Positions 209 to 37,292 are shown, numbered from the stretch's first letter. The stretch is 64,000 nucleotides of DNA from Candidatus Microgenomates bacterium (GCA_016204995.1 JACQJR010000001.1:92548-156547), one strand, 5' to 3'. The notes: a model not told the origin generated them from the sequence alone. Numbers and translations: made by a program.

Positions 209-258
209 GGCTCTTAGGTAACCCAAGAGCCTAACTGCCCAATTGCCTAACAGCCTTT
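209..258. repeat. Hairpin repeat element GGCTCTTAGG-taac-CCAAGAGCC-TAACTGCC...GCCTAACAGCC spanning the murD stop codon, in the murD-ftsW spacer
   Basis: 9-bp stem GGCTCTTAG/CCAAGAGCC. The 3' part overlaps the last seven codons of murD (AVRQLGS). Shares GGCTCTT.GG / CCAAGAGCC / TAAC.GCC with the 36591-36650 element. Confidence 0.55.
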
Positions 259-1589
259 TTAAATTGCTCTCCCCTGTCTTTATAATCTTTAAACATATCA
301 AAAGAGGCAGCCGAAGGAGACAAAAGAACTATGTCACCGCTTTCAGCTATTTGGGCCGCATTTTTAATAATTTCGGCCATATTTTTACCGCCGCCAATTA
401 ATTGCCCCTTAAAACCGGCATTTTCTAAATCTTGCTTAATTTGCCCCCCCACCTCTCCCATATAAATAATGGCTTTGACATTTTTCTTAGCTGCCAGTTT
501 TCTGGCCATTTCCGTATAGTCCAAACCTTTACTACTCCCACCCAATATCAAAATTAAAGGCTTACTAAAAGAATTAACTGCCGCCAGGGTGGGGGTCGGA
601 CTGGTCGCAAAAGAGTCGTTATAAAATTTAATCCCCTGGTACTCTCCCGCTAATTCCAAGCGATGTGGTAGACCGGCAAATGTAAATACTGCTTGTTTAA
701 TTCCCTCCACTGTAGCGCCAGCTAGTTTTGCTGCGCAAGTAGCCAAAACAATATTTTCCCAATTATGAGTACCCAGCAATAATAATTTATCTACGCTACC
801 GATTTCCACCGCCTTCTCTACATTTAAAACAATTTTGCCTTTTTTGATATATCCTCCTTTAACTTCTTCTTTAATACTGGCCCAAAAAACCTCTGCTTTA
901 GTTTTTGGGGCAAAACTGCAAGGAGTTTCATAGTCTTTCATTAAAACTACAAAATCTTTTTCTGTTTGAAATCTAACAATATTTTCTTTTGCCTGGACAT
1001 ATTCTTCTCTATTTTTATGCCAATCCAAATGGTCGGTCGTGATGTTCAAGACTACGGCAATATGAGGACTTCTTTCTATATCAATTAATTGAAAGGAGGA
1101 CATTTCCAGTACTACCAGGTCGGACCTCGTCAGATGCGATAATAATTCTAAATATGGCGTGCCAATGTTACCAGCCAGGTAAGTGTTTTTCCCAGAAGCC
1201 TTTAAACACTCATGAATTAAAGTAGCAGTCGTGCCTTTCCCTTTAGTGCCGGTGACGCCGATAATTCTAGCAGGGCATAGTTCAAAAAAAATATTAATGG
1301 CGCTAGTTAGTTTGGCCCCGCTTTTAACTGCTTCTGCAATCTCTGGTAAATCGGGCCGCACGCCTGGAGAACGGACAACGTAATCAAAACCGATTAGGCC
1401 ACCTTTTAAATAATCTGGGCCTGTCACCAGCTCAAACCCCGATTTAATCGGAGCCAGTTGCTCTTTTTCTTTTTGATCAAAAACAGTTACTAACGCTCCG
1501 TTTTGGAGAAGAAACTGCAGCGAATCCTGACCTTCAACCCCCAAACCAATTACTGCTACTTTTTTACCCTGGAATTTCATACTATACAA
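231..1589 (-). CDS. murD: UDP-N-acetylmuramoylalanine--D-glutamate ligase
   Basis: Rossmann-like N-terminus KKVAVIGLGVEGQ, Mur ligase P-loop GVTGTKGKGTT, C-terminal domain LGGSSKG...; dcw context. Confidence 0.9.
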   Translation of the reverse strand: MYSMKFQGKKVAVIGLGVEGQDSLQFLLQNGALVTVFDQKEKEQLAPIKSGFELVTGPDYLKGGLIGFDYVVRSPGVRPDLPEIAEAVKSGAKLTSAINIFFELCPARIIGVTGTKGKGTTATLIHECLKASGKNTYLAGNIGTPYLELLSHLTRSDLVVLEMSSFQLIDIERSPHIAVVLNITTDHLDWHKNREEYVQAKENIVRFQTEKDFVVLMKDYETPCSFAPKTKAEVFWASIKEEVKGGYIKKGKIVLNVEKAVEIGSVDKLLLLGTHNWENIVLATCAAKLAGATVEGIKQAVFTFAGLPHRLELAGEYQGIKFYNDSFATSPTPTLAAVNSFSKPLILILGGSSKGLDYTEMARKLAAKKNVKAIIYMGEVGGQIKQDLENAGFKGQLIGGGKNMAEIIKNAAQIAESGDIVLLSPSAASFDMFKDYKDRGEQFKKAVRQLGS

Positions 1590-1626
1590 TCTTTAAACAA
1601 ATTGTACACTTTTTTGCTAAATTTTC

Positions 1627-3228
1627 CTACGGAGCCACTTCTTGCCAGAGGCGGGAATGGCGGGAGAGGTCGCGGGGGAAAGTGAAGATTAAATCAGGAG
1701 CATATTCAATATACTCGGCCGGTTTAGTGTCATTTTTACCGTTTTGTCTGGTAGGATCCAAATCCCGTTGAAAATTAATGCCTGCCCAAGCAATTAAACT
1801 ACCCCTAACATATAATTGATCATCGCCGCTAGGGTTATGGCCGGTAGAAATAGTACCATTGGTAATAAATAATCCTTCCAGGGCTGGTTGGTTGGGATGA
1901 GAAACAGAGGGATCAATATTAATATTGCCGCTGACAATAGCCATAAAGAAACCCGTACCCTTATTAAGATTTATTTTACCGCCAATAGTTAAATTGCCAT
2001 TCACCAAAAGTATCACTTTTCTATCATTTAAATTTACCGTGGAGTTAATATTTAAATCACCATTACGATAATGCCAAACATAGCCACCCGATTCATAGCC
2101 GGAAATTAAATTGCCACCACTAATCTCCCCATCATTAATAATTGAACCAGAATCCGTAAACACTGCCGGCGGAGCGAGTGGGGCAAACCAGTTATAATTA
2201 AAAAATTTACCTTTATAGAACGATTTACCAATCCAGCCTTTAGAAGAAACACTACCGCTGCCAAAGGAACTATTGCCGCTATAAACAGCTATACCGGGGA
2301 ATCCCCCAGTTCCATCCTCAATCAGCTTTTTACCGGAAGGGAGAGCCGAGCTTATATCCCCATTGCTCCAAAAATCGGCATCCTTCCCCTGCCACCAGGG
2401 AGCCGGTTTAGAGCCTCCCCCGCCACCACAGCTATTACAATTAGTACTGCAACTACTTTCCGTGGTTTGATATGACTCACAAACATTATTAGTGCAACGA
2501 TAGCAAGTAATCGTGGGTCGACCCGCACAATTATCACAGTCAGTATTGCAAGGGTTGTCACTACTATAAGAAGTACAGGTATTATTCTGGCATTCATAAC
2601 AAGTATAATTATCTTGTCCACAGGAATTATCTTGCTGATTACAATCTCCTACATCATAACCGCAAACTCCGCTACCGTCTGACCAGGTATATTCCTTAAC
2701 ATGCTGACTTTTTTTATTACCGCAACATTGATTATATTCCCGATTATAATCACAGGTAGGACCAGGGGGAGGAGGACACCAACCACCACAACCGCCATCT
2801 TCTTGAGTACTATGAACATGGAAACTGCAATCGGTATGCCGATGAACTGTCTGACTCTGATTACACCCAATACATTCGTTATAAGTAGCCTCTTCGCAAG
2901 AAGGAGGAGGAGCGGGACTACAACCACACTCTTCGGCACAAGAAGAATGACCAGCCGCTGGATCGTTAGATTCACCGTTACAAAAATAAACAGGGTCACC
3001 AATCTCATCATAGTAAACACTACAAGTACCACTCCAAGCAATATTACACAATGCACCAGATGGATAAGAACAGCAATAATTATCCCCTGTATAACTACAA
3101 GGAATACCTATATCCTCTGGTCCGCAAGCGAAAATTCTTTGAGAGTTAGCACCGAAAATAACAAATAATAAAACAAAAATCCCTAGGAGGATACTGAAAT
3201 GGGAGAACAGGAGAAGGCTTCTCAACAT
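1627..3228 (-). CDS. Secreted/membrane-anchored cysteine-rich protein with a C-terminal beta-helix-like repeat domain (hypothetical)
   Basis: N-terminal hydrophobic signal/anchor (LLLFSHFSILLGIFVLLFVIF). About 45 Cys in ~230 aa (CxxC, CGC, CNxxC motifs). Gly-rich linker. C-terminal ~250 aa with G/N/I-rich repeats (GNLTIGGKINLNKGTGFF, SGNINIDPSVS) typical of parallel beta-helix. Track ORFs 2352..2621, 2649..3056 and 2701..3168 are shadow ORFs of this low-complexity gene. Confidence 0.6.
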   Translation of the reverse strand: MLRSLLLFSHFSILLGIFVLLFVIFGANSQRIFACGPEDIGIPCSYTGDNYCCSYPSGALCNIAWSGTCSVYYDEIGDPVYFCNGESNDPAAGHSSCAEECGCSPAPPPSCEEATYNECIGCNQSQTVHRHTDCSFHVHSTQEDGGCGGWCPPPPGPTCDYNREYNQCCGNKKSQHVKEYTWSDGSGVCGYDVGDCNQQDNSCGQDNYTCYECQNNTCTSYSSDNPCNTDCDNCAGRPTITCYRCTNNVCESYQTTESSCSTNCNSCGGGGGSKPAPWWQGKDADFWSNGDISSALPSGKKLIEDGTGGFPGIAVYSGNSSFGSGSVSSKGWIGKSFYKGKFFNYNWFAPLAPPAVFTDSGSIINDGEISGGNLISGYESGGYVWHYRNGDLNINSTVNLNDRKVILLVNGNLTIGGKINLNKGTGFFMAIVSGNINIDPSVSHPNQPALEGLFITNGTISTGHNPSGDDQLYVRGSLIAWAGINFQRDLDPTRQNGKNDTKPAEYIEYAPDLIFTFPRDLSRHSRLWQEVAP

Positions 3229-3231
3229 GGT

Positions 3232-3786: not shown

Positions 3787-3836
3787 TTCATCATTACAGA
3801 AAATTCTTGTGATGTCAACCTAAAGAATAGAAGTTT

Positions 3837-6130: not shown

Positions 6131-7171
6131 TCATATTAGCGCTAGCCATAAACCGAAAATAGCCAGGAGTGCCCCCGCCAGCCAGGCCCGCATGACAATT
6201 TTGGGCTCTTCCCATTTAATAGCCTGCAGCAGCAGGTGAAATGGGGCAATGGGTAATACGGGATGGCCTAAAAATTTACGAGCCCCAATTTGAATAAAAC
6301 TGGAAAAAGCTTCAGCGATAAAAATTCCGCTAATTACAGCCACGGCAAAAATTTTCCCGGTCAAAAGACCAATAACAGCTAGGGTCGCTCCAAAAGCCAG
6401 TGCCCCAGTGTCCCCCATAAAAATCCGGGCCGGCCAAATATTAAAGTATAGAAAGGCAAATAAAGCACCAATCCAGAGGGCAATAAATATAGACAGGGGG
6501 GTATCAAAAACAGTTCCGGCAATAATCCATAAAGCAAATAAACAAATAAGCAAAAGTCCACCGGCCAAACCATCTAAACCATCGGTGATATTAACAGCAT
6601 TGGTAAATGCCACCATCACAAAGGCGGCAAAAGGTACATACCACCAGCCTAAATGGAATAGATTTTCCATAATCGGAATATGCACAATATCAATCTTTAA
6701 ATTGTTCCACATTAAAAATCCTATCGCGAGAGCAATGATCCATTGAGCAGCAAATTTCCATCTGCGGCCAATACCAAATATATTGCCCATTTGACCAGCC
6801 TTTGGTTTGCCAAAAAACTTCATTAAATCATCATAAAATCCCAGCAGTCCAAAACCGATAAAAGTCAAGAAAATAATTCTGACTTCGTCTACTAAAGGAT
6901 AAGCCGAAGAGATGGGTATGCCGAGCAAGGAAAAAGCGGGAAATAGTACTACAAATAATAATGACACTACGCTAATGATCAAGAGGCCTCCTCCCACTGG
7001 TGTACCCGCTTTCCAGTCATGCATTTTGTCAAAAAAGGGAATTTTCTTTTTATTTTTAGGGGCTTCGTGCCTGCGGGTAAACTTTAGCCGATAAAGCAAA
7101 TTAATAAAGGGAATGATTAAAATACTGGTGATGATGAAGGAAAATATTAATAGTCCTAAAGATAGTGCCAT
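6131..7171 (-). CDS. mraY: Phospho-N-acetylmuramoyl-pentapeptide transferase
   Basis: Ten-TM polyprenyl-phosphate transferase. Carries NAVNITDGLDGLAGG (MraY/WecA DGxDGL motif) and a DDLMKFFG aspartate motif. dcw context. Confidence 0.9.
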   Translation of the reverse strand: MALSLGLLIFSFIITSILIIPFINLLYRLKFTRRHEAPKNKKKIPFFDKMHDWKAGTPVGGGLLIISVVSLLFVVLFPAFSLLGIPISSAYPLVDEVRIIFLTFIGFGLLGFYDDLMKFFGKPKAGQMGNIFGIGRRWKFAAQWIIALAIGFLMWNNLKIDIVHIPIMENLFHLGWWYVPFAAFVMVAFTNAVNITDGLDGLAGGLLLICLFALWIIAGTVFDTPLSIFIALWIGALFAFLYFNIWPARIFMGDTGALAFGATLAVIGLLTGKIFAVAVISGIFIAEAFSSFIQIGARKFLGHPVLPIAPFHLLLQAIKWEEPKIVMRAWLAGALLAIFGLWLALI

Positions 7172-7180
7172 ATAATAAAA

Positions 7181-7290
7181 TTAACCTAATTGCTCTAATT
7201 GACCTAATTTCTAAATAATGACCAAGATTAGAAATTTTTCCTGATTTGGGATTTATTTAGGTAAATTAGGAATTAGAATAATTAGAAATT
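7181..7290. repeat. AT-rich intergenic inverted-repeat element built from TTCTAATT/AATTAGAA units (copy 1, murA-mraY spacer)
   Basis: ttaacctaattgctctaattgacctaatttctaa...attagaaatt...aattagaataattagaaatt. The left and right arms are reverse complements. The same unit recurs at 12684-12766, 18388-18500 and 30988-31078. Confidence 0.6.
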
Positions 7291-7295
7291 TTCGT

Positions 7296-8555
7296 TTATT
7301 CTACTCTTGTTATTTCTGCGCCTAATTTGGCAAGTCTTCCATCTAAATCCTCGTAACCCCGATCAATAATTTCAGCATGTTCAATAGTGGACTCACCATC
7401 AGCACCAAGAGCTGCTAACACTAGAGCCGAACCTGCTCTAATATCATTAGAGGGAATATTATCCGCCCGTAGTTTAGTCGGCCCATTCACCACGATCCGA
7501 TGTGGATCGGCAATGGTGATGTCCGCCCCCATTTTGATTAAATGATCCACGAAAAATATCCGCCACTCATACATCCAATCGTGACAGATCACAGTTCCTT
7601 TAGACTGCGTTGCCAAAACAATGAAGGGGCTCATTAAATCAGTGGGAAAACCAGGCCATGGCCTGGTTTGGAAAGTTTTGCGGTTTGCCGCTAGCTCTCC
7701 CGGCATAATTTCCAGTTGATTTTCACTCGTCTTATATTGCACTCCTAAATGTCCTAAATAAGCCAAGATCATTTTTAGATTTTTAGTAGTAACTTCATTA
7801 ATCGTGATATGGCCGCCAGTTAAGGCCGCCGCGATAGCAAAGGTGCCTACGTCAATATGGTCATCAATTACTCGATGAGTAGTGCCAATAAGTTCCTTTT
7901 TGCCGGTAATATTTAAAATATTAGTGCCTCCGCCGATAATATCAGCTCCAGTTTTACTTAAAAACTGCGCTAAATCCTGAATATGAGGCTCTGCCGCCGC
8001 ATCTTCAATCACTGTATTACCTTCAATATTAGCCCCTAAAATCAATCCCATGGCGGTAGCCGTCACCGAAGCTTCTTCTAAAAAGATCTCGGCCGGTTTT
8101 AAATTAGCCCCATCTAACTCAAAAACCCCATTACGCTCATCAATAGTTACCCCGAATTCATGAAGCAAACTAAAATGTGTATCCAGCAGACGTTCGCCGA
8201 TAGAATCTCCGCCCGGAGGAGTAATGGTGGCTTTTTTAAAGCGGGCTAGGAGCGGAGCCGCCAAAAGTACTGAAGCCCGGAATTTGCTCATTAGGGTTGG
8301 ATCTGTCTCCCATTTAGAAAGGCCGGAAGGATCAATTTTTAAAATGTTCGTACCTACACCCTCCACTTTTACTCCCAAACCTTCCAAAATTTGGGCCATA
8401 AACATCACATCCCGAATAATAGGCACATTGGTAAGGGTAACCGGGGAATTAGTCACCAGTGAGGCTGCCATCAGAGGAAGAGCGGCATTCTTGTTGCCGG
8501 CGGCGCTAATTTCACCTGTCAGGGCCTTACCGCCCTTAACCTTAAATTGAGCCAT
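7296..8555 (-). CDS. murA: UDP-N-acetylglucosamine 1-carboxyvinyltransferase
   Basis: N-terminus MAQFKVKGGKALTGEISAAGNKNAALPLMAASL matches the EPSP-synthase-fold MurA signature; length 419 aa. Confidence 0.9.
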   Translation of the reverse strand: MAQFKVKGGKALTGEISAAGNKNAALPLMAASLVTNSPVTLTNVPIIRDVMFMAQILEGLGVKVEGVGTNILKIDPSGLSKWETDPTLMSKFRASVLLAAPLLARFKKATITPPGGDSIGERLLDTHFSLLHEFGVTIDERNGVFELDGANLKPAEIFLEEASVTATAMGLILGANIEGNTVIEDAAAEPHIQDLAQFLSKTGADIIGGGTNILNITGKKELIGTTHRVIDDHIDVGTFAIAAALTGGHITINEVTTKNLKMILAYLGHLGVQYKTSENQLEIMPGELAANRKTFQTRPWPGFPTDLMSPFIVLATQSKGTVICHDWMYEWRIFFVDHLIKMGADITIADPHRIVVNGPTKLRADNIPSNDIRAGSALVLAALGADGESTIEHAEIIDRGYEDLDGRLAKLGAEITRVE

Positions 8556-9748: not shown

Positions 9749-10455
9749 ATATCAATTTCGCCCGCTATGGCTGCCGGCCGATGATAAGGCAAACTGTGTC
9801 CAATATTTTTAAATACCTTCAGAATAGACTTGGAAATTTGAGCTTTGGTTTGGTAAGCCAATGCTGGCGGTAAAATTTTATCACTTCCTCCCCAAAGTAT
9901 CAGCACTGGCATGGCAAGTTTTCCTAAATTATAGTAATTATCTCCTGAACGGATGCTGCGTAAAATAAGCCTATTCCAAAAACCACTAGGCATTTCATAA
10001 TAGTGCGACAAAACCCACTTTCTAATATTAGGAAACCAGATTAACATACCACCTAATAATTTATAAAAAAAGTGTTTTAGTGATGATGGAGAGGAAACAG
10101 TAGAGGAGCAAATTACTAATCCCCTTACATTTTTATCACCTAAGGCTAGCGCTGTGGCCACTCTACCACCAAAAGAATGACCAAAAACTATATAAGGCAG
10201 ATTTCCCCATTTGTCTTTGACAAAATTACTAATCACAGTCTTATAACCATCGGTTGTTAAAGGAATCTCCGGCTTAAACGATTTGCCAAAACCAGGTAAA
10301 TCAACCGCTAAAACATGCCATCCTTTTTTGACTAGATCACGAGCTAAAGGCCTAAACTTTTCTTTATCCACTGCCCAACCATGAATCAACACAATATTTT
10401 TCTCTCCCTGCCTGCGCAGGCAGGCCTCGCCTAATTCAAAATAACTTAATTCCAC
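9721..10455 (-). CDS. Alpha/beta-fold hydrolase embedded in the dcw operon
   Basis: IVLIHGW (HG oxyanion motif), GHSFGG nucleophile elbow, C-terminal His. Its N-terminal extension carries an in-frame copy of the 18-bp palindrome (ACLRRQ). Confidence 0.7.
   Translation of the reverse strand: MELSYFELGEACLRRQGEKNIVLIHGWAVDKEKFRPLARDLVKKGWHVLAVDLPGFGKSFKPEIPLTTDGYKTVISNFVKDKWGNLPYIVFGHSFGGRVATALALGDKNVRGLVICSSTVSSPSSLKHFFYKLLGGMLIWFPNIRKWVLSHYYEMPSGFWNRLILRSIRSGDNYYNLGKLAMPVLILWGGSDKILPPALAYQTKAQISKSILKVFKNIGHSLPYHRPAAIAGEIDMWAKTFLKV
10407..10424. repeat. 18-bp perfect palindrome CCTGCCTGCGCAGGCAGG, copy 1 (in-frame in the hydrolase CDS, encodes ACLRRQ)
   Basis: Exact 18-mer read from the sequence. 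The palindrome has no stop codon in any frame. Confidence 0.8.
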
Positions 10456-12664: not shown

Positions 12665-12683
12665 AAAAACAAATTTAAATTAA

Positions 12684-12766
12684 CCAATTTCTAATTGTTC
12701 TAATTTCTAATCAAATCTCAATTCCCAAAATTTTAGGTCAATTAGGTTAATTAGAAATTAGAAATT
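12684..12766. repeat. AT-rich intergenic inverted-repeat element (copy 2, murE-murC spacer)
   Basis: Left arm aatttctaattgttctaatttctaat, ~30-bp spacer, right arm attaggttaattagaaattagaaatt. The arms are near-perfect reverse complements, giving a MITE/REP-like long hairpin. Confidence 0.6.
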
Positions 12767-14079
12767 TTATCCCCCATTCTTTTTACCCCTCCTTTCAGCG
12801 ATACTCTGGCTGCTTCCTGATCTGACCAGGGGTATTCCATATTATCAATGGCCATAGATCTTTCGTGGCCTTTGCCGCAAAGAGCAACAATATCACCCGG
12901 GGCAGCTAATTTTTGAATTGCCAAGGCGATCGCTTCACCTCTTTCCGGTACTTTAACCACCCATTTCCCGCCTTTTCTCCAATTAGTCTGTCCGTCCCAA
13001 ACTTGAGCCTCTTGCCTAATACCGCGCGTTATATCATCAATAATCCGTTCCACATCTTCTGTCCGGGGATCATCAGCCGTCAGTATAATAAAATCAGCCA
13101 ACTTTGCGGCCGCCTTCCCCATCAAAGGACGCTTTCCTAAATCCCGTTGACCAGGACAGCCAAATGCCACAATTAGTTTACTCTTAGGAGGTTTTATTTT
13201 ACCCAGGGCTGTCAGTAAATTTTCCAAAGATCCCGGCGTATGAGCAAAATCCACTACCACAGTAAATTTTTTCCCTTCATTTATTACTTCCATTCTACCC
13301 CTTAAACCGGCAAAACTACTAACTGCCTCTCTAATTTTATCCCAAGCCACATTTAAACTTCTCACTGCTCCAGCCGCCGCTAAAATATTCGCCGCGTTAT
13401 ATTCACCGATCAATTTAGTCTGGAAATTCATACTTTTACCTTCTGCCTTAACCTCAAATTCCATTCCACCAGGAGTTAAGTTGACACTTTTATATACGAT
13501 CATAGCATGTTTTGATACATCATAAGAACCATAAGAGATGATTTTAGCATCACTACTAGCTTTTTGTTGTAAATAATCAAACGATGGGTCATCTTGATTT
13601 AACACTGCCACTTTAACTCCCCTTAATAATTTTGCTTTAGCCTCCCGATATCTCTCAAAAGTTTTATGATAATCAAGGTGTTCATGGGTGATATTAGTTA
13701 CTACTCCTATCTTAAAATTACCACCCAAGACCCGATGCTGGTCTAAACCATGCGAAGTGGTTTCTATCACGACGTGAGTGACACCTCTCTGCCGAGCTTG
13801 AGCAAGGATTGATTGCATAACCCGCGGATCAGGAGTAGTCACATGCAAACCGGTATCAATTTCTTCACCATCTAAAAACGCCCCTAAAGTAGAAATTACG
13901 GCTGTTTTATAGCCAGCAATACTTAAAATATGACCGATTAAATGAGTGGTGGTGGTTTTGCCATCAGTACCTGTTACTCCAATGACGGTCAAATCGCGAG
14001 CCGGATAGCCATTTTTAATAACCTGCCAAACAGCTGTTAAAAGATGCTGAAAATTCCGCCACCGGCCGTAGAGATTCAT
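12751..14079 (-). CDS. murE: UDP-N-acetylmuramoyl-L-alanyl-D-glutamate--2,6-diaminopimelate (or L-lysine) ligase
   Basis: VIGVTGTDGKTTTTHLIGHIL P-loop and Mur ligase C-terminal domain. Positioned after ftsI, as in canonical dcw order. Confidence 0.88.
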   Translation of the reverse strand: MNLYGRWRNFQHLLTAVWQVIKNGYPARDLTVIGVTGTDGKTTTTHLIGHILSIAGYKTAVISTLGAFLDGEEIDTGLHVTTPDPRVMQSILAQARQRGVTHVVIETTSHGLDQHRVLGGNFKIGVVTNITHEHLDYHKTFERYREAKAKLLRGVKVAVLNQDDPSFDYLQQKASSDAKIISYGSYDVSKHAMIVYKSVNLTPGGMEFEVKAEGKSMNFQTKLIGEYNAANILAAAGAVRSLNVAWDKIREAVSSFAGLRGRMEVINEGKKFTVVVDFAHTPGSLENLLTALGKIKPPKSKLIVAFGCPGQRDLGKRPLMGKAAAKLADFIILTADDPRTEDVERIIDDITRGIRQEAQVWDGQTNWRKGGKWVVKVPERGEAIALAIQKLAAPGDIVALCGKGHERSMAIDNMEYPWSDQEAARVSLKGGVKRMGDKISNF

Positions 14080-16123: not shown

Positions 16124-17014
16124 TTAAATCCTTTCCGCTATCCTTAATTTGGCGCTTTTCGCGCGGGGATTAGCCGCAATCTCCGCCTGACTTGGCCTAA
16201 TTGGTTTTTTAGTCAAAATTTTTAAATTATCCATCGCTTCCTGTTCTTTAAAAAAATTTTTAATAATGCTGTCCTCTCCCGAATGAAAACTAATCACTAC
16301 CAGCCTTCCTCTCTTGCCTAAAATTTCTACCGCACCTTTTAATCCCTCTTTTAAATTTTCCAATTCTCTATTTACCGCTATCCTCAAGGCTAAAAAAATT
16401 AAAGCTAGCGGACTAATACTTCTTTTCCGGCCTGCCTGTACTCTATCAATTACCGCCACCAGATCGCGAGTTTCCTCAAACTTTTTTAGCTCTCTGGCGC
16501 GGACAATAGCACGAGCAATTGTGCCAGCCACGTTTTTCGGCACAGTTTGGCTAAATAATTCATTTAATTGATCCTCTCTTAAGCTGTTTAACAGGTCGGC
16601 TGCCGTTACACCTTGAGCTTGCGGATTCATTCTCATATCCAACAGGTTGCTTTGAGTGAAAGAGAAACCTCGCGCACTGCCAAGCTGCGTGCTGGATATG
16701 CCTAAATCAAACAGCACTCCATCTACGGGCACGAAATTATGCTCCTTAGCCACTTCGGTGATCTTTGCGAAATTAGAATGGGCAAAAACAACATCAGGAC
16801 TCGCCTGCGCAGGCAGGCAGGATAAAAGATGTTGTCTAGCCGTCTCCAAGGCTTCTTTATCCCAATCCATCGCCAGTACTCTGGCACCTTGTTCACAGAT
16901 AGCCCTGGTGTGTCCTCCGCCACCTAAAGTTGCGTCTATGTACCGACCTTGTTTTTTAATGTGCAAATAATCTACTACCTCTTTAATTAATACCGGGATA
17001 TGGTTACTTTCCAT
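16124..17014 (-). CDS. rsmH: 16S rRNA (cytosine1402-N4)-methyltransferase RsmH (MraW)
   Basis: HIPVLIKEVVDYL, SAM-binding DATLGGGGH, and LLDMRMN motifs. Contains an in-frame palindrome variant (CLPAQAS). Confidence 0.9.
   Translation of the reverse strand: MESNHIPVLIKEVVDYLHIKKQGRYIDATLGGGGHTRAICEQGARVLAMDWDKEALETARQHLLSCLPAQASPDVVFAHSNFAKITEVAKEHNFVPVDGVLFDLGISSTQLGSARGFSFTQSNLLDMRMNPQAQGVTAADLLNSLREDQLNELFSQTVPKNVAGTIARAIVRARELKKFEETRDLVAVIDRVQAGRKRSISPLALIFLALRIAVNRELENLKEGLKGAVEILGKRGRLVVISFHSGEDSIIKNFFKEQEAMDNLKILTKKPIRPSQAEIAANPRAKSAKLRIAERI
16802..16821. repeat. Palindrome family variant CGCCTGCGCAGGCAGGCAGG inside rsmH (in-frame, encodes LPAQA)
   Basis: Core GCCTGCGCAGGC is perfectly palindromic; extended by CAGGCAGG. 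Confidence 0.6.
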
Positions 17015-17456: not shown

Positions 17457-17476
17457 GCAGGCCTGCCTGCGCAGGC
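17457..17476. repeat. Palindrome family variant GCAGGCCTGCCTGCGCAGGC, intergenic, 10 bp upstream of the mraZ start, flanked by GGGCAGGC direct repeats
   Basis: Read directly from the sequence. GGGCAGGC occurs at 17454-17461 and 17500-17507. Confidence 0.6.
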
Positions 17477-17543
17477 TAGAAGTTGGGGGATGGGCAGGCT
17501 AATCATGACTGAATGTGATGATTTTCCCCCACTTTTCACCACT

Positions 17544-18500: not shown

Positions 18501-18523
18501 ATTAAAAATTATTACTTTTCTAA

Positions 18524-20074: not shown

Positions 20075-20635
20075 CTAATTTAAAAACTTTAGAAATCTTC
20101 TGGTGCGAAGTCTCGCTTGGATTAAATTCTCAATAGTGGCATCTACATCAGCTTGCCCCGATTCAATCGGGGCTGACGGGTGCAAAAATCCTAAATCGGT
20201 CAATATGGCTTTTTTAAAGCGAATCACAAATTCAGCCATCCGGCTATAATCAATCTTGGTTAAATAGTTAAAAGCACTTTCCAGAATTTCATAAACCTTT
20301 TTTTGCTCCTGCTCTTCCCGCGTTAATTTATTAACCACTTCAGCCAAATGATAGGCAATGCCGACTTTGGCTAAATCTTTGCGCCATTCGTTGAAATTAT
20401 TTTTTACCTCTACTTCGGTAATAATATTAAAAGTTTTGCCCCGGGCCAAAAAAATACTTACTTGATTAAATAACTCTACACTGCCGCGCTTACGGCTCGT
20501 CGGTCTGCGCACGCCTTTGGCAATCACCCGCAGTTTCCCCTGCTGTTCAGAAAAAATTGTCAAAAGCCTGTCTGCCTCACCAATATTCCTTCTTGCCAAA
20601 ATAATCGCTTCTAGTTTATAGCTTCTTTGTTTCAT
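20075..20635 (-). CDS. recO: DNA repair protein RecO (short form)
   Basis: N-terminal OB-fold region LEAIILARRNIGEADRLLTIFSEQQGKLRVIAKGVRR matches the RecO signature. Carries an in-frame CCCCGATTCAATCGGGG copy (SAPIESGQ). Confidence 0.65.
   Translation of the reverse strand: MKQRSYKLEAIILARRNIGEADRLLTIFSEQQGKLRVIAKGVRRPTSRKRGSVELFNQVSIFLARGKTFNIITEVEVKNNFNEWRKDLAKVGIAYHLAEVVNKLTREEQEQKKVYEILESAFNYLTKIDYSRMAEFVIRFKKAILTDLGFLHPSAPIESGQADVDATIENLIQARLRTRRFLKFLN
20156..20172. repeat. Palindrome CCCCGATTCAATCGGGG (family 2) in-frame within recO
   Basis: Exact 17-bp palindrome; translated as PIESG on the minus strand. Confidence 0.75.
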
Positions 20636-20649
20636 AAAATTTATCTACC

Positions 20650-21408
20650 CTAAGAACAGTTTTTGGCTTTACGCCAGCCGGCGGCCACTGCTTCAACTTC
20701 TGTACAAAACCAACGCTCACCACTTTCCGTATTAATCATTGTTTTATCATAACTTTTACAACCGAGTAAATGATAAATTTTATCGCCACTAGCGCTGATA
20801 TTACCCTTGATTAGGCAGTTGGGCGATTGGCCTGCCTGCGCAGGCAGGGCTGTTGGGTCATTAGATTCTTGAATTACACCTTGTACTTGGCAGAAATCGC
20901 TCGCCCATAAACCGCGGCCGGCTTCCCTTGCTTCTTCTTCAGCAACTAAAAATTTATCTTTATATTTTACATCAGGTGGAAAAGTAGAAACGCGCGCCAT
21001 GCCTAACCTAATTAACTCTTCATTTACCATTAAATTATCTACATAAACGTATCTTAACAATCTACCGTATTTGTCCGTTTCTGAAATATCTTTTTCTAGT
21101 CTGACTTTTTTGCCCAACACCAGCTCTTTATTTTTCCTGGTGGACTCTTCTACCCCACATTTTCCGCTCTCTGGCGTATCCATACCGATATAACGAAGTT
21201 TTTTCCCGCCTTCTATCTCAATGGTATCTCCGTCAATAATTCGTGTTACCGCAACAAATTGACTGGCGATCGCAGAAGTATCTGTGGCACTAGGAACAAC
21301 TGAATTAGTAGGAAAGCTGGGAGATTTCTGATCGCGACTTTCGCCCCATAAAATAAAAGCGGCCAAGATGCTGATAATCCCGACTGCGGCTAGAAGTTTT
21401 TCTCTCAC
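20650..21408 (-). CDS. Secreted thermonuclease (staphylococcal-nuclease/SNase fold) with a Cys-containing C-terminal extension
   Basis: N-terminal TM/signal. SNase motifs VTRIIDGDTIEI, LRYIGMDTPE, YGRLLRYVYV, AREAGRGLW. C-terminal CxxxGNISASGDKIYHLLGCKSY...WFCTEVEA domain. An 18-bp palindrome sits in the linker (ALPAQAGQ). Confidence 0.8.
   Translation of the reverse strand: MREKLLAAVGIISILAAFILWGESRDQKSPSFPTNSVVPSATDTSAIASQFVAVTRIIDGDTIEIEGGKKLRYIGMDTPESGKCGVEESTRKNKELVLGKKVRLEKDISETDKYGRLLRYVYVDNLMVNEELIRLGMARVSTFPPDVKYKDKFLVAEEEAREAGRGLWASDFCQVQGVIQESNDPTALPAQAGQSPNCLIKGNISASGDKIYHLLGCKSYDKTMINTESGERWFCTEVEAVAAGWRKAKNCS
20831..20848. repeat. 18-bp palindrome CCTGCCTGCGCAGGCAGG, copy in the nuclease CDS linker (LPAQAG)
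   Basis: Exact 18-mer. Confidence 0.8.
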
Positions 21409-25253: not shown

Positions 25254-26343
25254 TAATTAGTCTTTTAAATTTTTGCACAAACATTCTTTGCGAAAATCTT
25301 CTCGTATGGGCCTGAATAATTTTAACATCATAATTTTCTCTCTTAAAATTTTTGATTGTGCGCGCTAAACTCTCCACAGTTTGCTCTGTAAAAAATTCTC
25401 CGGTTTTCCCGGCTACTACCGTTTCTAAGGCTCCGCCGCCTTTATAGGCAATGACTGGCGTACCGCACATCTGCGCCTCAACGGCCACTATACCAAAATC
25501 TTCCTCTTGGGGGAAGATTAAAACCTGTGCCTTTTTATAGTACGCAACAAGTTCACTATCTGTCAAATGACCGGCAAAGTAAATATTGTTCTTGGCCATT
25601 TTTGATAATTTTCTATATTGGCTGCCTGTTCCCACAATTACCAGAGGCCAACCTAATTTATTAAAAGTTTTAACCACCAAATCTATTCTTTTATAAGATA
25701 CGAGTCGAGAAACCACTAAGAAATAGTTTTTAGATTTTAGATTTTGGATTTTAGATTTCTTACTAAACTCTAAGCTCAAACCTCTAACATCTAAATTCAC
25801 CGGCGGGTACACCACCTTTGACTTGCGTCCATAGTATTTATCTACTCTATTTCGCACCGCCTCGGAAATCGCCACCATCTCATCCGGCCTTTGCGCCGCC
25901 ATCTTATCCCAACTTTTTAGATATGAAAGCAGCCATTTGATGAAGAAACGCTTGATTCTATTGTGGAAATAAATTTCGTGTCCGCTCCATAGATATCTGG
26001 TGGGGGTCAAACAATAACAAATATGGCGGGTGCCGGGGTGAGTAATAATTCCCTTGGCCGCCTCACTGGTAACGGAAATTACTAAGTCATATTCAGAGAA
26101 ATCAAATTGTTCAAAGGCCAGGGGCATCAGCAGAGCTAGCCATTCATGATGTTCCCGAATCAAAGGAATTTTTTGTAAAAATGAAGTATAAACCTGCGGA
26201 AAAACTTGCGCCCACGGTGCATATTTGGCAGAATAAACCGAGGTATAAAGCGGAGCCTTAGGAAATATGTCATGTAGGGCCAGTAATACTCTTTCAGCAC
26301 CACCCCACTTATTCACCCGATCATAAACAATCGCAACTTTCAT
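25246..26343 (-). CDS. Glycosyltransferase family 4 (GT-B)
   Basis: C-terminal EDFGIVAVEAQMCGTPVIAYKGGGALETV (E-x7-E region). Contains an in-frame tandem heptamer repeat at 25731-25759. Confidence 0.85.
   Translation of the reverse strand: MKVAIVYDRVNKWGGAERVLLALHDIFPKAPLYTSVYSAKYAPWAQVFPQVYTSFLQKIPLIREHHEWLALLMPLAFEQFDFSEYDLVISVTSEAAKGIITHPGTRHICYCLTPTRYLWSGHEIYFHNRIKRFFIKWLLSYLKSWDKMAAQRPDEMVAISEAVRNRVDKYYGRKSKVVYPPVNLDVRGLSLEFSKKSKIQNLKSKNYFLVVSRLVSYKRIDLVVKTFNKLGWPLVIVGTGSQYRKLSKMAKNNIYFAGHLTDSELVAYYKKAQVLIFPQEEDFGIVAVEAQMCGTPVIAYKGGGALETVVAGKTGEFFTEQTVESLARTIKNFKRENYDVKIIQAHTRRFSQRMFVQKFKRLINE
25731..25759. repeat. Tandem heptamer repeat (TAGATTTT/AGATTTT/GGATTTT/AGATTT) in-frame inside the GT4 gene
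   Basis: tagattttagattttggattttagatttc. Minus-strand translation gives KIQNLKSKN in the inter-domain linker. Confidence 0.6.
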
Positions 26344-30983: not shown

Positions 30984-30987
30984 AGAT

Positions 30988-31078
30988 AATTGACCTAATT
31001 AACCTAATTTCTAATTGACCTAAAATTTGTACATTGGGATTTGATTAGAAATTAGAACAATTAGTAATTAGAATAATT
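30988..31078. repeat. AT-rich intergenic inverted-repeat element (copy 4)
   Basis: taattgacctaattaacctaatttctaattgacctaaaatttgtacattgggatttgattagaaattagaacaattagtaattagaat. Confidence 0.6.
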
Positions 31079-32570
31079 TCACAATCACATATTGGTCAGT
31101 TTTCTCCAATACTTTATATTGCTCCATAACTTCTTGAGTTTGTTTATCAAAATTTACTGACACATAATACTCGGCACCTAACCTTTTGATCATATACTCC
31201 ATCGGTAAAGTCACAAATGGCCAACCGTTACGATTTGTTTGGTATAAGAAAGCCGTATCACCGTTGTAAGGTGCGATAATGCGCGCATCGGGTGGAGTAA
31301 GTCTTTGAACCGCAGCGCCCGCTGTGATAATTTCCGGGTGATTAATTTTATAATATTCTTTAACTTGATAAGCGGATAAGGCAAATCCTATTAAAATGCT
31401 AGTAATCAAGATGCCTCTAGTTAAAAATTTATTGAATTCTTTTAAATTCCACAACAGTAAAGTTCCGTAAGCTAAAGATAAACAAACTGCAGGTATAATC
31501 AGGGTCTGATAATAATCATGACGAACACTGGCTGTTGCCACTACCGTCATATAAAGAATTTGTGACGCAACAAAAATATGAACTATGTAGGGAAAAGCTT
31601 TAGCTTTATTAACCATTCCAAACAAAAATGGCAAAACCGCTCCTATTCCTAAAATTAATTGGCCTAGACGGGCGCTAAATATCCAATACCACCAAGCCGG
31701 CCGAAAACGAATATTGTCGCCATTAAAGGCCCATTGCCAATGCGGTATACCAACTAAATTGGTAATTTGATTCATCCAAATTCGCCAAGAGAGAAAGGGA
31801 ATTAAAGATAATGACAAAAATATCCATAATTTAGGTTGTTTAAGCCAGCCAACTAATCCAAATTTAACAACGGCTAGATAAACCATTGGTAAAGCATAAA
31901 AACCGATGTAGGGTTTAAGGAGTAAAGCCATGGCAAAGAAAAAAGCAGAAACAAAAATATTTATGGCCCACTTCCCATCAATCCATCTGATAAAGAACCA
32001 TAAGGAGACTAAAATGAAGGCCACCGCCATTGGTTCTGGCAAAATTACCCTAGAAAAATAAATATTAAATGGCAAAAAGGCAAAGAAAAAGGCAGCCAGC
32101 AGTCCTCCAACCCCGATTGAATCGGGGCCAGCTGAACCTGCCTGCGCAGGCAGGTCAAAAAACCTTCTGCCCAATAGAAACATCATTACCACCGAAACTA
32201 AAGAGAATAACACTGACAATAATCTACCCCACATCTCCAAAGACCAATTAGGATATAGTTTATAAAGCAAGGCATGAGCCGCGTTAAAAACCGGAAACTC
32301 TACATAGCGCAAACCACGAGGATTTTCATAACTTGTTTGGGTGCTGGAAAGATCATGATATTGAGGATAAAGCAGATTGATACCATCTTTGACAAAAGTT
32401 CTACTAACCGAAGAAGTGTCTGCTTGTCTCCAGCTGTGCCAGTCAGCAATCGGGCTATCTATTTTATAAAGCCGCACAATCAGCGCCATTACCACTATGA
32501 GAGTTAATACTCCATACTCAAAATATGGCAAGTTGATTATTTTTTTAGACAAACCCTTGATTAGCATCAT
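31068..32570 (-). CDS. GT-C-type integral-membrane glycosyltransferase (ArnT/PMT_2-like)
   Basis: About 12 TM helices. The WHSWRQADTSSVSR first-loop motif is typical of polyprenyl-P-sugar-dependent GT-C enzymes. Contains a composite in-frame insertion of both palindromes (DLPAQAGSAGPDSIGVGG). Confidence 0.6.
   Translation of the reverse strand: MMLIKGLSKKIINLPYFEYGVLTLIVVMALIVRLYKIDSPIADWHSWRQADTSSVSRTFVKDGINLLYPQYHDLSSTQTSYENPRGLRYVEFPVFNAAHALLYKLYPNWSLEMWGRLLSVLFSLVSVVMMFLLGRRFFDLPAQAGSAGPDSIGVGGLLAAFFFAFLPFNIYFSRVILPEPMAVAFILVSLWFFIRWIDGKWAINIFVSAFFFAMALLLKPYIGFYALPMVYLAVVKFGLVGWLKQPKLWIFLSLSLIPFLSWRIWMNQITNLVGIPHWQWAFNGDNIRFRPAWWYWIFSARLGQLILGIGAVLPFLFGMVNKAKAFPYIVHIFVASQILYMTVVATASVRHDYYQTLIIPAVCLSLAYGTLLLWNLKEFNKFLTRGILITSILIGFALSAYQVKEYYKINHPEIITAGAAVQRLTPPDARIIAPYNGDTAFLYQTNRNGWPFVTLPMEYMIKRLGAEYYVSVNFDKQTQEVMEQYKVLEKTDQYVIVKLF
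32111..32127. repeat. Palindrome CCCCGATTGAATCGGGG (family 2) in-frame in the GT-C gene, 9 bp from an 18-bp palindrome
   Basis: Exact 17-bp palindrome. Confidence 0.75.
32137..32154. repeat. 18-bp palindrome CCTGCCTGCGCAGGCAGG (extends to a 20-bp palindrome ACCTGCCTGCGCAGGCAGGT), in-frame in the GT-C gene
   Basis: Exact. Confidence 0.8.
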
Positions 32571-33939: not shown

Positions 33940-34843
33940 AGATTTTAGCCCGCGTGGGGCGGGCTATGGTAAAAATAATAATTCTCAACAAGCTTCCTAT
34001 CAATAATAATAAACGCAAAATGAGTCTTTGCCAAAATGGAAAATGTTTTTGGTAAAGCAATTTTAAGCCCTTAATTTCTCCATAAATTGTGCCACTCCTT
34101 GTGCCGCTGGCTCCGCCATAATGGATAATTGAAGTAATTGGGGTATAAGCAATATTCCATCCTGCTTTTTTGACTCGCCAGCAGTACTCCAATTCCTCCA
34201 CATAGAGAAAAAAGTCTTCATCTAATAAACCAACTTTGTTTATCACTTCCCGCCGGATTAAAAAAAACGCTCCGGTTACCCAATCTAAACCGCGTTCTTC
34301 TCTGTAAAAATTACTATCTCTGTGGGGATGATATGATCCAACTAAATCCCCTACTCCAGGGATGTCATCCAAAAGAGTCGCCCATAAAAAAAGACGGGGT
34401 AAATTAGGGAAAAAACCACCGGTGGCTTGAACACTACCGTCCGGATTTTTCAACATACAACTGGCAATTCCTACTTGCGAATGTTTTTCCATCCAATCAA
34501 GCATTTTTGCCAGCGAATTTTCGGTTAATTTGGTATCAGAATTTAGAAGCAGAATATATTTTCCTTTGGCAATTTTTATTCCCTGATTATTAGCCGCCGC
34601 AAAACCCAAGTTGTCCAAATTTTCAATTAATTTTAAATTATAAATTTTAAATTTTAAATTCCGTATGGCAGCCATGCTGCCATCGGATGATGCATTGTCC
34701 ACCACAATTACCTCATAACTTATGCCCTTAGTCCACTTTTTAATTGATGCTAAACACTCCAATAACAAATCTTTAGTATTGTAAGAAACGATAATGATGG
34801 AAAGATCAGCCATTTTTAGTAAAAAGAGTTTTTCGCCACTCAT
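33914..34843 (-). CDS. Glycosyltransferase family 2 (GT-A)
   Basis: LSIIIVSYNTKDLLLECLASIKKW...VIVVDNASSDGS. Likely true start at the internal Met (MADLSIIIV, ~34813). Contains an in-frame AT-rich tandem repeat at 34631-34660 (NLKFKIYNLKLI). Confidence 0.85.
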   Translation of the reverse strand: MSGEKLFLLKMADLSIIIVSYNTKDLLLECLASIKKWTKGISYEVIVVDNASSDGSMAAIRNLKFKIYNLKLIENLDNLGFAAANNQGIKIAKGKYILLLNSDTKLTENSLAKMLDWMEKHSQVGIASCMLKNPDGSVQATGGFFPNLPRLFLWATLLDDIPGVGDLVGSYHPHRDSNFYREERGLDWVTGAFFLIRREVINKVGLLDEDFFLYVEELEYCWRVKKAGWNIAYTPITSIIHYGGASGTRSGTIYGEIKGLKLLYQKHFPFWQRLILRLLLLIGSLLRIIIFTIARPTRAKIYVGALGKI

Positions 34844-35965: not shown

Positions 35966-36019
35966 ATCTAAATTAATTATAGCATCAAATTAAACAATAT
36001 GGAGTTAAAATAATAGGCT

Positions 36020-36144
36020 ACACCTTGATTACACCTTCGGGGTGTCTTACGATTACACCTAAGGTCATTAGATATTTCTCTACCATTATTCCCGATGTGT
36101 CAACCTAATACACTCCCGATGTGGAACATCTTCACACATCAGGA
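36020..36144. promoter_or_regulatory. Repeat-rich intergenic region upstream of the acetyltransferase gene: two pairs of 10-bp direct repeats at 24-bp spacing plus an inverted copy
   Basis: GATTACACCT at 36027 and 36051. TCCCGATGTG at 36090 and 36114, with an inverted, imperfect copy (TCCTGATGTG, read on the minus strand) at 36135-36144. The ACACCttcggGGTGT hairpin lies between. The 166-bp gap suggests an internal promoter/operator. Confidence 0.3.
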
Positions 36145-37292
36145 TTAACAACCTTTTCCAAAACTCCTAAAGTTTGGTGGGCGGTTTTTTGCCAGTCAAA
36201 CATTTTAACCCTTACCAAACCCTTTTTAGAAAGTTTCTTGTGATTTTTCAGAGCTTTTTCTATCCCTTTGGCAATATCTTCTGGCATATTTGGATCTACC
36301 AGAATATCGGCATTACCCACTACCTCGGGCAAACTACCCACATTAGAAGCTACCACCGGCGTACCCACTGCCATAGCTTCTACCGCCGGAATACCAAACC
36401 CTTCCCAAAAACTCGGCAAAACAAAAACTTTAGCACCAGACAGTAATGATGGCACATCTTCATCGGCAACAAAATCAGTAAAAATTACTTTTTCCTCTAA
36501 ACCTAATTCCTTAACAAGGCTAAAAATTGAATCGTATAGCCATCCTCGTTTTCCGGCAATCACTAAAGAGAGGTCATTGGGCTCTTGGGTCATTGGGCTC
36601 TTGGGTTTATTATTCCTAGAAGCCAAAGAGCCTAACAGCCTAAAAGCCTGAATAAGTCCTTCCACATTCTTACTTGGTTTAAGAGTCCCCAAAAACAAAA
36701 TATAATCACCATCAATTTTATATTTTTCTTTTACTTGTTTTAATTGGAAATTGGAAATTGGAAATTGGAAATTCTTCCTATCATAGCCTGGATATGTTAC
36801 TGTAATCTTTTTATCTGGAACACCATAAGACTTTACTATATCTTTCTTTGTGCTTTCAGAAATAGCCAAGATATGATTAGCGTTTTTAATGGAATGGCCA
36901 GTCCAACGAGACAGCTGTAACCAATCCCTTTTAGTAAATTGTTCAGGATATCGCAAATATCCTAAATCCATAATGGAGACGACTGTGGGAATAGGCGACC
37001 AGCGGGGCCGATAATGCCCGGGTGTAAAAAAGATATCAAGGTGTTTACCGAAAAATAGAGAAAAGGGGAGGGCCAACTGCGTCCAAAAATACTTGGGGCC
37101 AAAAACTTTATATTCCCAACCCTCGCGTCTTTTTGGCATATCGGGCAGGGGATTACTCCGCAGATAAATTATGAACTGATGCTCCTGGCTCTCTGGTAAA
37201 TCATACAGTGCCAGAAGTAATTCAAAAGCGTATTGGTTAGCCCCTACCCGATTTTTAACATTGGCCTCATTTCCGTCTATACCAATTATCAT
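36132..37292 (-). CDS. Glycosyltransferase family 4 (GT-B)
   Basis: C-terminal EGFGIPAVEAMAVGTPVVASNVGSLPEVVG. Contains two in-frame repeat insertions: a (GGAAATT)x4 tandem at 36744-36773 (NFQFPISNFQ) and the GGCTCTTGGG...CCAAAGAGCC hairpin element at 36591-36650. Confidence 0.85.
   Translation of the reverse strand: MIIGIDGNEANVKNRVGANQYAFELLLALYDLPESQEHQFIIYLRSNPLPDMPKRREGWEYKVFGPKYFWTQLALPFSLFFGKHLDIFFTPGHYRPRWSPIPTVVSIMDLGYLRYPEQFTKRDWLQLSRWTGHSIKNANHILAISESTKKDIVKSYGVPDKKITVTYPGYDRKNFQFPISNFQLKQVKEKYKIDGDYILFLGTLKPSKNVEGLIQAFRLLGSLASRNNKPKSPMTQEPNDLSLVIAGKRGWLYDSIFSLVKELGLEEKVIFTDFVADEDVPSLLSGAKVFVLPSFWEGFGIPAVEAMAVGTPVVASNVGSLPEVVGNADILVDPNMPEDIAKGIEKALKNHKKLSKKGLVRVKMFDWQKTAHQTLGVLEKVVNPDV
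36591..36650. repeat. Hairpin repeat element GGGCTCTTGGG...CCAAAGAGCC-TAACAGCC, in-frame inside the GT4 gene (related to the element at 209-258)
   Basis: gggctcttgggtcattgggctcttgggtttattattcctagaagccaaagagcctaacagcc. Compare ggctcttaggtaacccaagagcctaactgcccaattgcctaacagcc at 209-258. Confidence 0.55.
36744..36773. repeat. Perfect tandem repeat (GGAAATT)x4 in-frame in the GT4 gene
   Basis: ttggaaattggaaattggaaattggaaatt. Confidence 0.7.

Follow-up and report, generated by a model that had tools for sequence, protein, structure and literature searches.

Repetitive extragenic palindromes (REPs) lie outside genes, occur by the hundred in a genome, have a conserved GT[AG]G head, and are associated with a RAYT (Y1 transposase) gene. 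In known contingency loci, the tracts are long, perfect, direct repeats for which off-phase alleles have been seen, with Haemophilus providing heptanucleotide and glycosyltransferase examples, and quasipalindrome or template-switch mutagenesis, together with slipped-strand duplication, represents a general mechanism of sequence change. The Rickettsia palindromic elements (RPEs) are about 150 bp long, fall into defined families, occur in dozens per genome, and account for 44 insertions in R. conorii (Ogata et al., 2000, summarised in PMC10969869), and the coding palindromes of nematomorph mitochondria are long (up to 284 bp), perfect, and situated over conserved protein regions (PMC6649704). 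Here, an imperfect palindrome of about 71-77 nt, with arms built of 8-nt units, is described from 64 kb of DNA of a Candidatus Microgenomates bacterium (GCA_016204995.1, JACQJR010000001.1:92548-156547; this whole stretch is the window in what follows, and copy counts refer to it unless stated). One copy covers the 3' end of murD and most of the murD-ftsW spacer, and a second, probably related copy is translated in frame within a gene for a family 4 glycosyltransferase (GT4); together they are tentatively read as a palindromic expansion element, low in copy number and RPE-like in its behaviour.

In the part of the window that holds both sites, the genes lie on the minus strand. The murD gene (231..1580, minus; Pfam MurD-like_N, Mur_ligase_M, and Mur_ligase_C) has ftsW downstream, with its ATG at 179-177, and the GT4 gene (36132..37292, minus; Pfam Glyco_transf_4 at residues 76-172 and Glycos_transf_1 at residues 194-354) encodes MBI4058742.1, which is annotated as intact (source metagenome-assembled genome, or MAG, with HY404_ locus tags) and belongs to a glycan-synthesis cluster of PMT_2, GT2, GT4, and Wzy_C genes. 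The layout at both loci is (GGNNNNTN)x4+GG, loop, CC+(NANNNNCC)x4, which in consensus form becomes (GGCNNTTR)4 + GG, loop, CC + (YAANNGCC)4. Both arms are 8-nt periodic at murD and GT4 alike, a feature that is new relative to an earlier, sequence-only reading of this DNA, in which a related element had been proposed at the two sites. Five copies are known (the two in the window, at 185-255 and 36572-36648, and those of L005, L004, and L163), and they align without gaps except in the loop, each having four units, a loop of 3-9 nt, and four further units. The parts of the window copies, along with a partial third relative, are as follows.

222..255, minus strand: murD copy, 5' arm (mRNA sense), GGCTGTTA GGCAATTG GGCAGTTA GGCTCTTG + GG
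231..233, minus strand: murD stop codon TAG, TA being the end of unit 3 and G the first base of the core stem
209..231, minus strand: core hairpin in the mRNA, GGCUCUUGGG-UUA-CCUAAGAGCC, 10 bp including one G.U pair
185..218, minus strand: murD copy, 3' arm (mRNA sense), CC + TAAGAGCC AAATAGCC TATAAGCC CATGAGCC
36615..36648, minus strand: GT4 copy, 5' arm (coding sense), GGCTTTTA GGCTGTTA GGCTCTTT GGCTTCTA + GG
36606..36614, minus strand: GT4 copy, A-rich loop, AATAATAAA, encoding NNK
36572..36605, minus strand: GT4 copy, 3' arm (coding sense), CCCAAGAGCCCAATGA x2 + CC, a perfect 16-nt tandem duplication
36576..36629, minus strand: extra DNA of the GT4 gene relative to L205, 54 nt, residues 222-239, SLASRNNKPKSPMTQEPN
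20810..20872, minus strand: partial third relative, in an SNase-family gene (Pfam SNase), recognised by weak BLAST matches and from its sequence and translation

At the murD site, the gene ends AVRQLGS followed by TAG (231-233), and the spacer to ftsW measures 51 nt, not the 52 given previously. Units 1-3 of the copy encode AVRQLGS, and the junction of units 3 and 4 (TTA|G) makes the TAG stop. On the plus strand, the core stem reads GGCTCTTAGG (209-218) and CCCAAGAGCC (222-231) around a TAA loop; its A.C mismatch corresponds to a G.U pair in the mRNA, so that the hairpin formerly described as a 9-bp stem right after the stop is indeed present, with 10 bp and a start at the last base of the stop codon. 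In a 101-nt context the minimum free energy is -35.7 kcal/mol (z -2.45); at the GT4 site, z is only -0.8. The 3' arm occupies most of the spacer, and because it covers the 46 nt upstream of ftsW and stops 5 nt short of the ATG, the hairpin may have a role in murD-ftsW coupling or mRNA stability; it could, for example, make ftsW translation depend on ribosomes completing murD.

MurD orthologues end ...QFKxAV[KR]xL followed by 0-12 residues, and AVRQL is therefore MurD's own C-terminus; the proposal that the element supplied the last seven residues of the protein does not hold. Likewise, the three closest orthologues (66-67% identical) encode the same end with unrelated DNA, have spacers of 14, 18, and 39 nt, and lack the hairpin, one of the outcomes that the sequence-only reading had itself named as telling against an element. 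Its claim that the element provides the stop context stands, given that the TAG falls at the unit 3/4 junction and the copy fills the greater part of the 51-nt spacer. Three independent Logan short-read assemblies agree exactly on the murD site, which is thus not an assembly artefact. In the closest MurD orthologue (L208:3840-3905, 67%), the murD 3' end and the 18-nt spacer carry a 7-nt array (TAAGTAA TAGGTAC TAAGTAT TAAGTAA), and this murD end is a short-unit array site too.

The GT4 site is read in frame as LLGSLASRNNKPKSPMTQEPND. The direct duplication reported there is real and can be refined to a perfect 16-nt tandem repeat (GGTCATTGGGCTCTTG x2.2 at 36572-36606, 100% identity by Tandem Repeats Finder). 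Units 1 and 2 of the left arm are the codons GCT TTT AGG CTG TTA GGC (AFRLLG); L205, the closest GT4 orthologue (73% identical), has no insert and reads GCA TTT GGG CTA TTG GGT at this position, which is already an 8-nt quasi-repeat (TTTGGGCT ATTGGGTA). Because the insert-less L205 has such equivalents, units 1-2 are taken as ancestral codons. The window exceeds L205 by exactly 54 nt, with the insert bounded as GGC|...|GAC, and the in-frame translation claimed for this copy is accordingly that of a genuine insertion. Its position was misjudged, residues 222-239 falling inside Glycos_transf_1 rather than between the two Rossmann domains. In an AlphaFold2 model of the protein (mean predicted local distance difference test score, or pLDDT, 89.5), the sole segment below 50 comprises residues 223-238, which form a loop between helix 210-226 and strand 242-246; by this model, the insert is shown to be an in-frame expansion of a predicted disordered surface loop inside the C-terminal domain. 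MBI4058742.1 is absent from the Logan assemblies, and in the protein collection it falls in a cluster with a representative of only 36 aa. The true inter-domain linker (36742-36773, residues 174-184) holds a perfect heptamer array, AATTGGA x4.6, encoding NFQFPISNFQ and found also at 34634-34660; orthologues have other heptamers at this linker, L205 and P0044 with a small hairpin nested between direct heptamer repeats.

The GT4 comparison comprised a protein alignment of 34 orthologues and the DNA of 3 close and 80 metagenomic orthologues. The insert position is a length hot spot in the 34-orthologue alignment, the loop ranging from 11 to 40 residues across orthologues, and many orthologues carry no insert whatever. 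The same element is found in the L005 gene (65% identical), in which 8-nt (GGCTCCTG x3) and 16-nt (CCAAAGAGCCTAATGA x2) duplications are both perfect, both 16-nt copies share the same two differences from the window, and the arms are poorly complementary. In the L004 gene (72%), the layout matches but the stem is another one (GGGATACTGGG/CCCAGTATCCC), and the L163 gene (52% identical, from a different clade) carries GGTTATTAGGCAATTAGGCTTAGAGGCTCTTAGGGGCGAACAACCCAAGAGCCTAACAACCCAAGAGCCCAACAACC, also with +54 nt; its copy bridges the two loci, the left arm being like the murD copy and the right arm like the window GT4 copy. A 16-nt alternation in the right arm is common to the window, L005, and L163 GT4 copies. 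Since the element is present in L163 (52%), absent from L205 (73%), and diverged in L004 (72%), simple vertical descent does not fit. Units that end in TTA and are followed by GG place a TAG in frame at every third unit; none of the four in-frame GT4 copies has ..TTA at unit 3 (TTT, AGA, CTG, and CTG instead), and no stop arises, so that a DNA-level repeat here plainly bears the mark of selection on coding.

Within the window, the murD and GT4 loci are reciprocal best BLAST matches (E about 1e-3), and their sequences are as the sequence-only reading had described them; the two-unit 8-nt pattern GG...TT.GG...TT.GG has 9 matches, all at these two loci, vs 0.17 expected. In a comparison with about 1 Mb of related DNA, the match between the murD copy and the L163 GT4 element has an E value of 8e-7 over 75 nt, and the GT4 copy matches the elements of L005, L163, and L004 with E values of 3e-16, 1e-10, and 1e-9, respectively. 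Because the common periodicity raises such BLAST scores somewhat, the kinship of the murD and GT4 copies is graded as likely rather than certain. The 10-bp stem by itself is ordinary, with 71 comparable hairpins in the window. A search of a genome collection for the core (GGCTCTTRGGN{3,30}CCNAAGAGCC) returned, among the matches listed, nearly all unrelated genomes, about half of them Streptomyces. The two listed matches from the candidate phyla radiation (CPR), L069 and L093, are attributable to chance, native peptides (RLLG...QEP and RLLG...EEP, in proteins that by eye we take to be UppP- and MreB-like) encoding both arms, and a weak BLAST match at L146 13243-13269 appears to be ordinary membrane-protein coding sequence. 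A 71-aa concatenate of two coding-strand peptides and one opposite-strand open frame matched nothing among other host proteins, and a HMMER search with a 30-aa window segment returned nothing at E<=0.001, both results being uninformative for so short a query. A DNA-uptake-sequence reading was set aside, the 10-mer core not being over-represented away from the two loci.

Other orthologues carry other repeats at the same GT4 loop. Direct perfect 7-nt arrays occur in L146, L152, L184, and L196, and hairpins with arms of 7- or 8-nt arrays and A-rich loops occur in L134, L136, L187, and L201. GC-rich hairpins of about 20-30 nt (e.g., CCCGCCGAAGGCGAGGCTCGCCATGGGCGG) are nested in 7-nt arrays, with the array unit directly repeated on either side, at the following places, where the direct repeats look like target-site duplications or the footprints of a tiny hairpin element.

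L125:620-750, L137:2476-2620, L160:3323-3500, L150:10637-10815, L201:8073-8235: nested GC-rich hairpins at the GT4 loop

Longer, REP-like GC-rich palindromes stand in frame at the loop in L175:11145-11285 and L182:5476-5650 (VILRAKPEGSREILRSAQNDI; HPELVSGS...DSGQARMT), and we take their peptides to resemble the repeat-derived peptides common in MAGs of uncultivated bacteria. All 34 near-perfect tandem arrays in 83 GT4 genes have a period of 7 or 8, a count made with a threshold favouring these periods, and the arrays of the family are confined to three loops (window residues about 34-39, 173-186, and 220-240). With a uniform threshold of at least 3.5 copies, 50 of 53 arrays in about 955 kb (L125-L204, L004, L005, L205, and the window) have period 7; 47 of these 50 lie inside open frames, with lengths peaking at 31-34 nt (about 1.6 + 3 units, which keeps the frame). 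A lean to period 7 is also seen in unrelated control loci (14 of 21), which, being mostly homologous Streptomyces contigs, are not a clean control. The places where Logan contigs break, given below, are the loop of the murD hairpin, an AATTTCC heptamer array, and the spacer, rich in repeats, that lies downstream of GT4; contigs nearing GT4 end inside the heptamer array or before the gene and so carry no allele information.

L003 end, L210-L212 ends, L213-L214 starts: Logan contig breaks

Several known element and RNA classes were compared with the palindrome. Given that the murD stem is followed by AAAUAGCCUAUAAG, with no U-tract and an empty terminator scan at 180-260, the reading as an intrinsic (Rho-independent) terminator was rejected, and Rfam 15 gave sub-threshold chance matches only (best 26.4 bits vs a gathering score of 88). 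Of the cells in the alignment of the five copies, 72% pair, vs 24-56% with the partner column slid; partner shuffling also gives 72%, and 62 of 500 shuffles reach the observed score. As shuffles match the observed pairing and score, with no covariation beyond them, the pairing belongs to the consensus and not to compensatory change. An integron attC reading fails on either strand, the order GTTAGGC ... GCCTAAC being the opposite of 5'-RYYYAAC ... GTTRRRY-3'. The terminal inverted repeats with target-site duplications that define a miniature inverted-repeat transposable element (MITE) were not found, there being no flanking direct repeats and the outer units being host codons. By inspection, no conserved GTAG/GTGG head stands beside the five aligned copies. 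The label REP/RPE-like, as applied earlier, therefore fits in its RPE half, the GT4 copy being in frame in a tolerated loop; the REP half finds no support, in that the element is not extragenic only, is of low copy number in the available DNA, and shows no GT[AG]G head on inspection.

We favour, at somewhat short of even confidence, a low-copy palindromic expansion element with RPE-like behaviour that is shaped by slippage and coding constraint; the focal family is one of several small-palindrome and short-unit-array families at permissive sites in this genome. Its host genes in the 64 kb are two unrelated ones and a partial third, and its GT4 copy is an in-frame, non-disruptive insertion at a permissive surface position (pLDDT <50 at 223-238). 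The outer units coincide with host codons, namely GT4 units 1-2 (by comparison with L205) and the MurD AV[KR]xL consensus. The element would have been copied or extended onto sites whose codons already resembled these outer units, with a helix-end hydrophobic-R-x-L-G motif, written NTT AGG CNN TTR GGC, as the putative seed in both host genes. Replication slippage within the arms, acting at the DNA level, would have produced the perfect 8- and 16-nt duplications, which would have been homogenised within each lineage, while selection would remove copies that break the frame or add a stop. Such an element is most likely neutral or selfish, and the mRNA hairpin after the murD stop would be a by-product.

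A number of observations weigh against this account of a distinct element. Full copies number two in the 64 kb and partial copies one, the latter (20810-20872) having the same 8-mers in a direct array (TAATGACC CAACAGCC ... CAATCGCC CAACTGCC TAATCAAG) that is broken by an 18-nt palindrome, CCTGCCTGCGCAGGCAGG; the 14-21 kb surrounding the copies of L004 and L005, and the 4.4-kb L163 contig, yielded no others. Neither window copy has flanking direct repeats of the target-site type, no defined termini are evident from the five-copy alignment and the L205 comparison, and no link to a transposase was seen, although no search aimed at transposases was made; mobility is for these reasons inferred from distribution alone. 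Beyond the core and units 1-2, the similarity of the murD and GT4 copies is largely one of GG/CC periodicity, and the murD copy may have grown convergently from similar seed codons. In addition, the +54 nt and the A-rich loop come back at this GT4 position in hairpins whose sequence is quite different, a recurrence of size and loop that could mean an old structure kept by selection. A wider form of the palindromic-element reading, to which we give rather little credence, is that the focal element may stand for a single sequence version of a conserved architecture (four units, A-rich loop, four inverted units, about 48-54 nt) that recurs at the Microgenomates GT4 loop with other units, beside 7-nt arrays at three loops, and that would represent a lineage-wide DNA-level system and not junk. 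Conceivably, such a system would take the form of hypermutable non-triplet tracts by which surface-glycan glycosyltransferases are switched, or of a mechanism dedicated to 7/8-nt units and hairpins, of which the footprints of a tiny hairpin transposon with 7-8-bp target duplications would be an example.

Two rival explanations concern the origin of the palindrome. In the absence of any common ancestry, slippage would have expanded the NTT AGG CNN TTR GGC codons and fold-back template switching would have inverted them, independently in each gene. Such a local origin would account for the ancestral codons at units 1-2 in both genes, for the quasi-repeat TTTGGGCT ATTGGGTA already present in the insert-less L205, and for the lack of the hairpin in the three closest MurD orthologues, with a different 7-nt array at the murD end of L208; the perfect tandem duplications show active slippage, and short-unit arrays are common in coding DNA here (50 of 53 with period 7, 47 of 50 in open reading frames, or ORFs). 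It is nevertheless unlikely, for the right arms of the window, L005, and L163 share the 16-nt alternation CCCAAGAGCC+YAAYRA x2 despite GT4 proteins only 52% identical, which makes convergence improbable; moreover, the RQLG-type units of L163 may not be ancestral, neighbouring clade members having no such residues, and the murD copy matches that of L163 with E 8e-7 over 75 nt. Separate insertions at murD and GT4 of a classical non-autonomous transposable element, whether a MITE or a REP-like sequence served by a RAYT or IS200/IS605-type transposase, would explain the same core at two unlinked loci, as well as its presence in distant GT4 orthologues and absence from the closest; and hairpin elements in these genomes do seem to move, to judge from the repeats resembling target-site duplications in L125, L137, L160, L150, and L201 and from the REP-like palindromes of L175 and L182. 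The focal copy, however, has neither target-site duplication nor distinct termini, the GT4 gene gained only 54 nt of a palindrome that measures 71-77 nt in full, host codons make up the left outer units, and the copy number in the sampled DNA is very low; no transposase was seen (none was looked for), and we regard this origin as quite improbable.

The remaining two explanations assign the palindrome a function. A selected nucleic-acid structure, serving as an mRNA stabiliser, processing site, or means of coupling between murD and ftsW and as a ribosome pause after the first helix of the C-terminal domain in GT4, would suit the strong 10-bp stem that begins at the last base of the stop and the 3' arm that reaches to 5 nt before the ftsW start, and every large GT4-loop insert in the orthologues folds as a hairpin, typically of +48-54 nt with an A-rich loop and differing sequence. 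Yet the lack of a U-tract speaks against a canonical terminator, the best Rfam match stays below the gathering score (26.4 vs 88 bits), covariation does not exceed that of shuffles (62 of 500), the hairpin is absent from the three closest orthologues of MurD, complementarity between the L005 arms is poor, the GT4 fold in the window has a z of -0.8, and many orthologues are insert-free, which together leave such a role very unlikely. Equally hard to credit is a contingency (phase-variation) locus, in which the non-triplet repeats (16-nt x2.2, and AATTGGA x4.6 at 36742-36773) would toggle a surface-glycan glycosyltransferase by slippage. The gene does sit in a glycan-synthesis cluster, the periods of 7 or 8 (34 of 34 arrays in 83 orthologues, at three loops; 50 of 53 with period 7 in 955 kb) are suggestive, and heptanucleotide repeats and glycosyltransferase phase variation are known in Haemophilus, but none of the 83 orthologues is frameshifted at an array, the arrays consist of just 3-5 units and in many cases are imperfect, imperfection prevails in the focal arms as well, and the murD copy is by its position not switchable; the Logan contigs, breaking at the repeats, offer no allele information. 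The palindromic element shaped by slippage and coding constraint is retained as the preferred reading.

Other palindromes and short-unit arrays were observed in the window, along with one neighbouring gene. The 18-nt palindrome CCTGCCTGCGCAGGCAGG, perfect or near-perfect, has 6 copies vs 0 expected, all six within minus-strand open frames of at least 160 aa and four of them translated as LPAQA[GS]; it is an in-frame palindrome family of higher copy number than the focal element. Another palindrome, CCCGATTSAATCGGG, has 3 exact copies (18461-18475, 20157-20171, and 32112-32126) vs 0.07 expected, two in ORFs and one intergenic, with a degenerate copy inside murD at 1438-1452; near 32.1 kb, a single membrane-protein gene holds both it and the CCTGCC palindrome, 10 nt apart. 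AT-rich elements with inverted arms of 7-9-nt units (TCTAATT / AATTAGA, TAATTGACC), some with repeated TTGACC, are probably the other hairpin elements of the sequence-only reading; at least three (12676-12769, 18391-18511, and 30987-31078) are outside long open frames, and that at 25724-25795 is inside a 365-aa frame. Directly upstream of murD, and thus beside the cell-wall genes murD and ftsW, a 533-aa cysteine-rich ORF without a Pfam match occupies 1627-3228 on the minus strand, for which the NCBI annotation gives a shorter product of 474 aa.

10407-10424, 16800-16817, 17462-17479, 20831-20848, 32137-32154, 41687-41704: copies of CCTGCCTGCGCAGGCAGG
7170-7310, 12676-12769, 18391-18511, 25724-25795, 30987-31078: AT-rich elements

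If the preferred reading is correct, CPR/Microgenomates genomes, which are usually called streamlined, hold in-frame palindromes and short-unit arrays in housekeeping and surface-glycan genes, a situation like that of the Rickettsia RPEs, yet one built from 8-nt and 7-nt sub-repeats that merge with host codons. In practical terms, short-read assemblies break at these sequences, the Logan contigs ending exactly there, and such sequences add spurious-looking protein loops and can create stop codons and operon spacers. The coding arrays stand out for their near-exclusive period of 7 and, in one glycosyltransferase family, for being confined to three loops.

In comparison with known systems, template switching with slippage would explain inverted arms grown from pre-existing sequence, local duplications, and homogenisation, but by itself does not explain the same sequence at the same GT4 position in distant genomes, or the murD copy. 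Like contingency loci, the GT4 gene has non-triplet units (7, 8, and 16 nt) in a surface-glycan glycosyltransferase of a small-genome bacterium; unlike them, it has 2-5 units that are often imperfect, in inverted arms, with no frameshifted allele in 83 orthologues. The nematomorph palindromes likewise constitute inverted repeats in functional coding sequence, with both arms translated and selection acting on the amino acids, whereas the focal palindrome is short, imperfect, and located in a non-conserved loop. With REPs and bacterial interspersed mosaic elements it shares a short imperfect palindrome just past a stop codon in an operon spacer and a possible mRNA hairpin; it differs from them in that its GT4 copy is read into protein, its murD copy runs over the final seven codons and the stop, copies are few in 64 kb, no GT[AG]G head is seen on inspection, and no accompanying RAYT is known. 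From RPEs the element is set apart by its length of about 75 nt, its 2-3 copies in 64 kb, its arms of 8-nt sub-repeats, and the merging of its outer units with host codons, and the likeness to them is one of behaviour only, with no sequence kinship implied. In that behaviour, the resemblance is direct: as with RPEs, a palindromic repeat is found both in non-coding DNA and in frame in unrelated protein genes, and it occupies a tolerated spot (the only low-confidence loop of the GT4 model), where it adds a peptide and leaves the gene intact.

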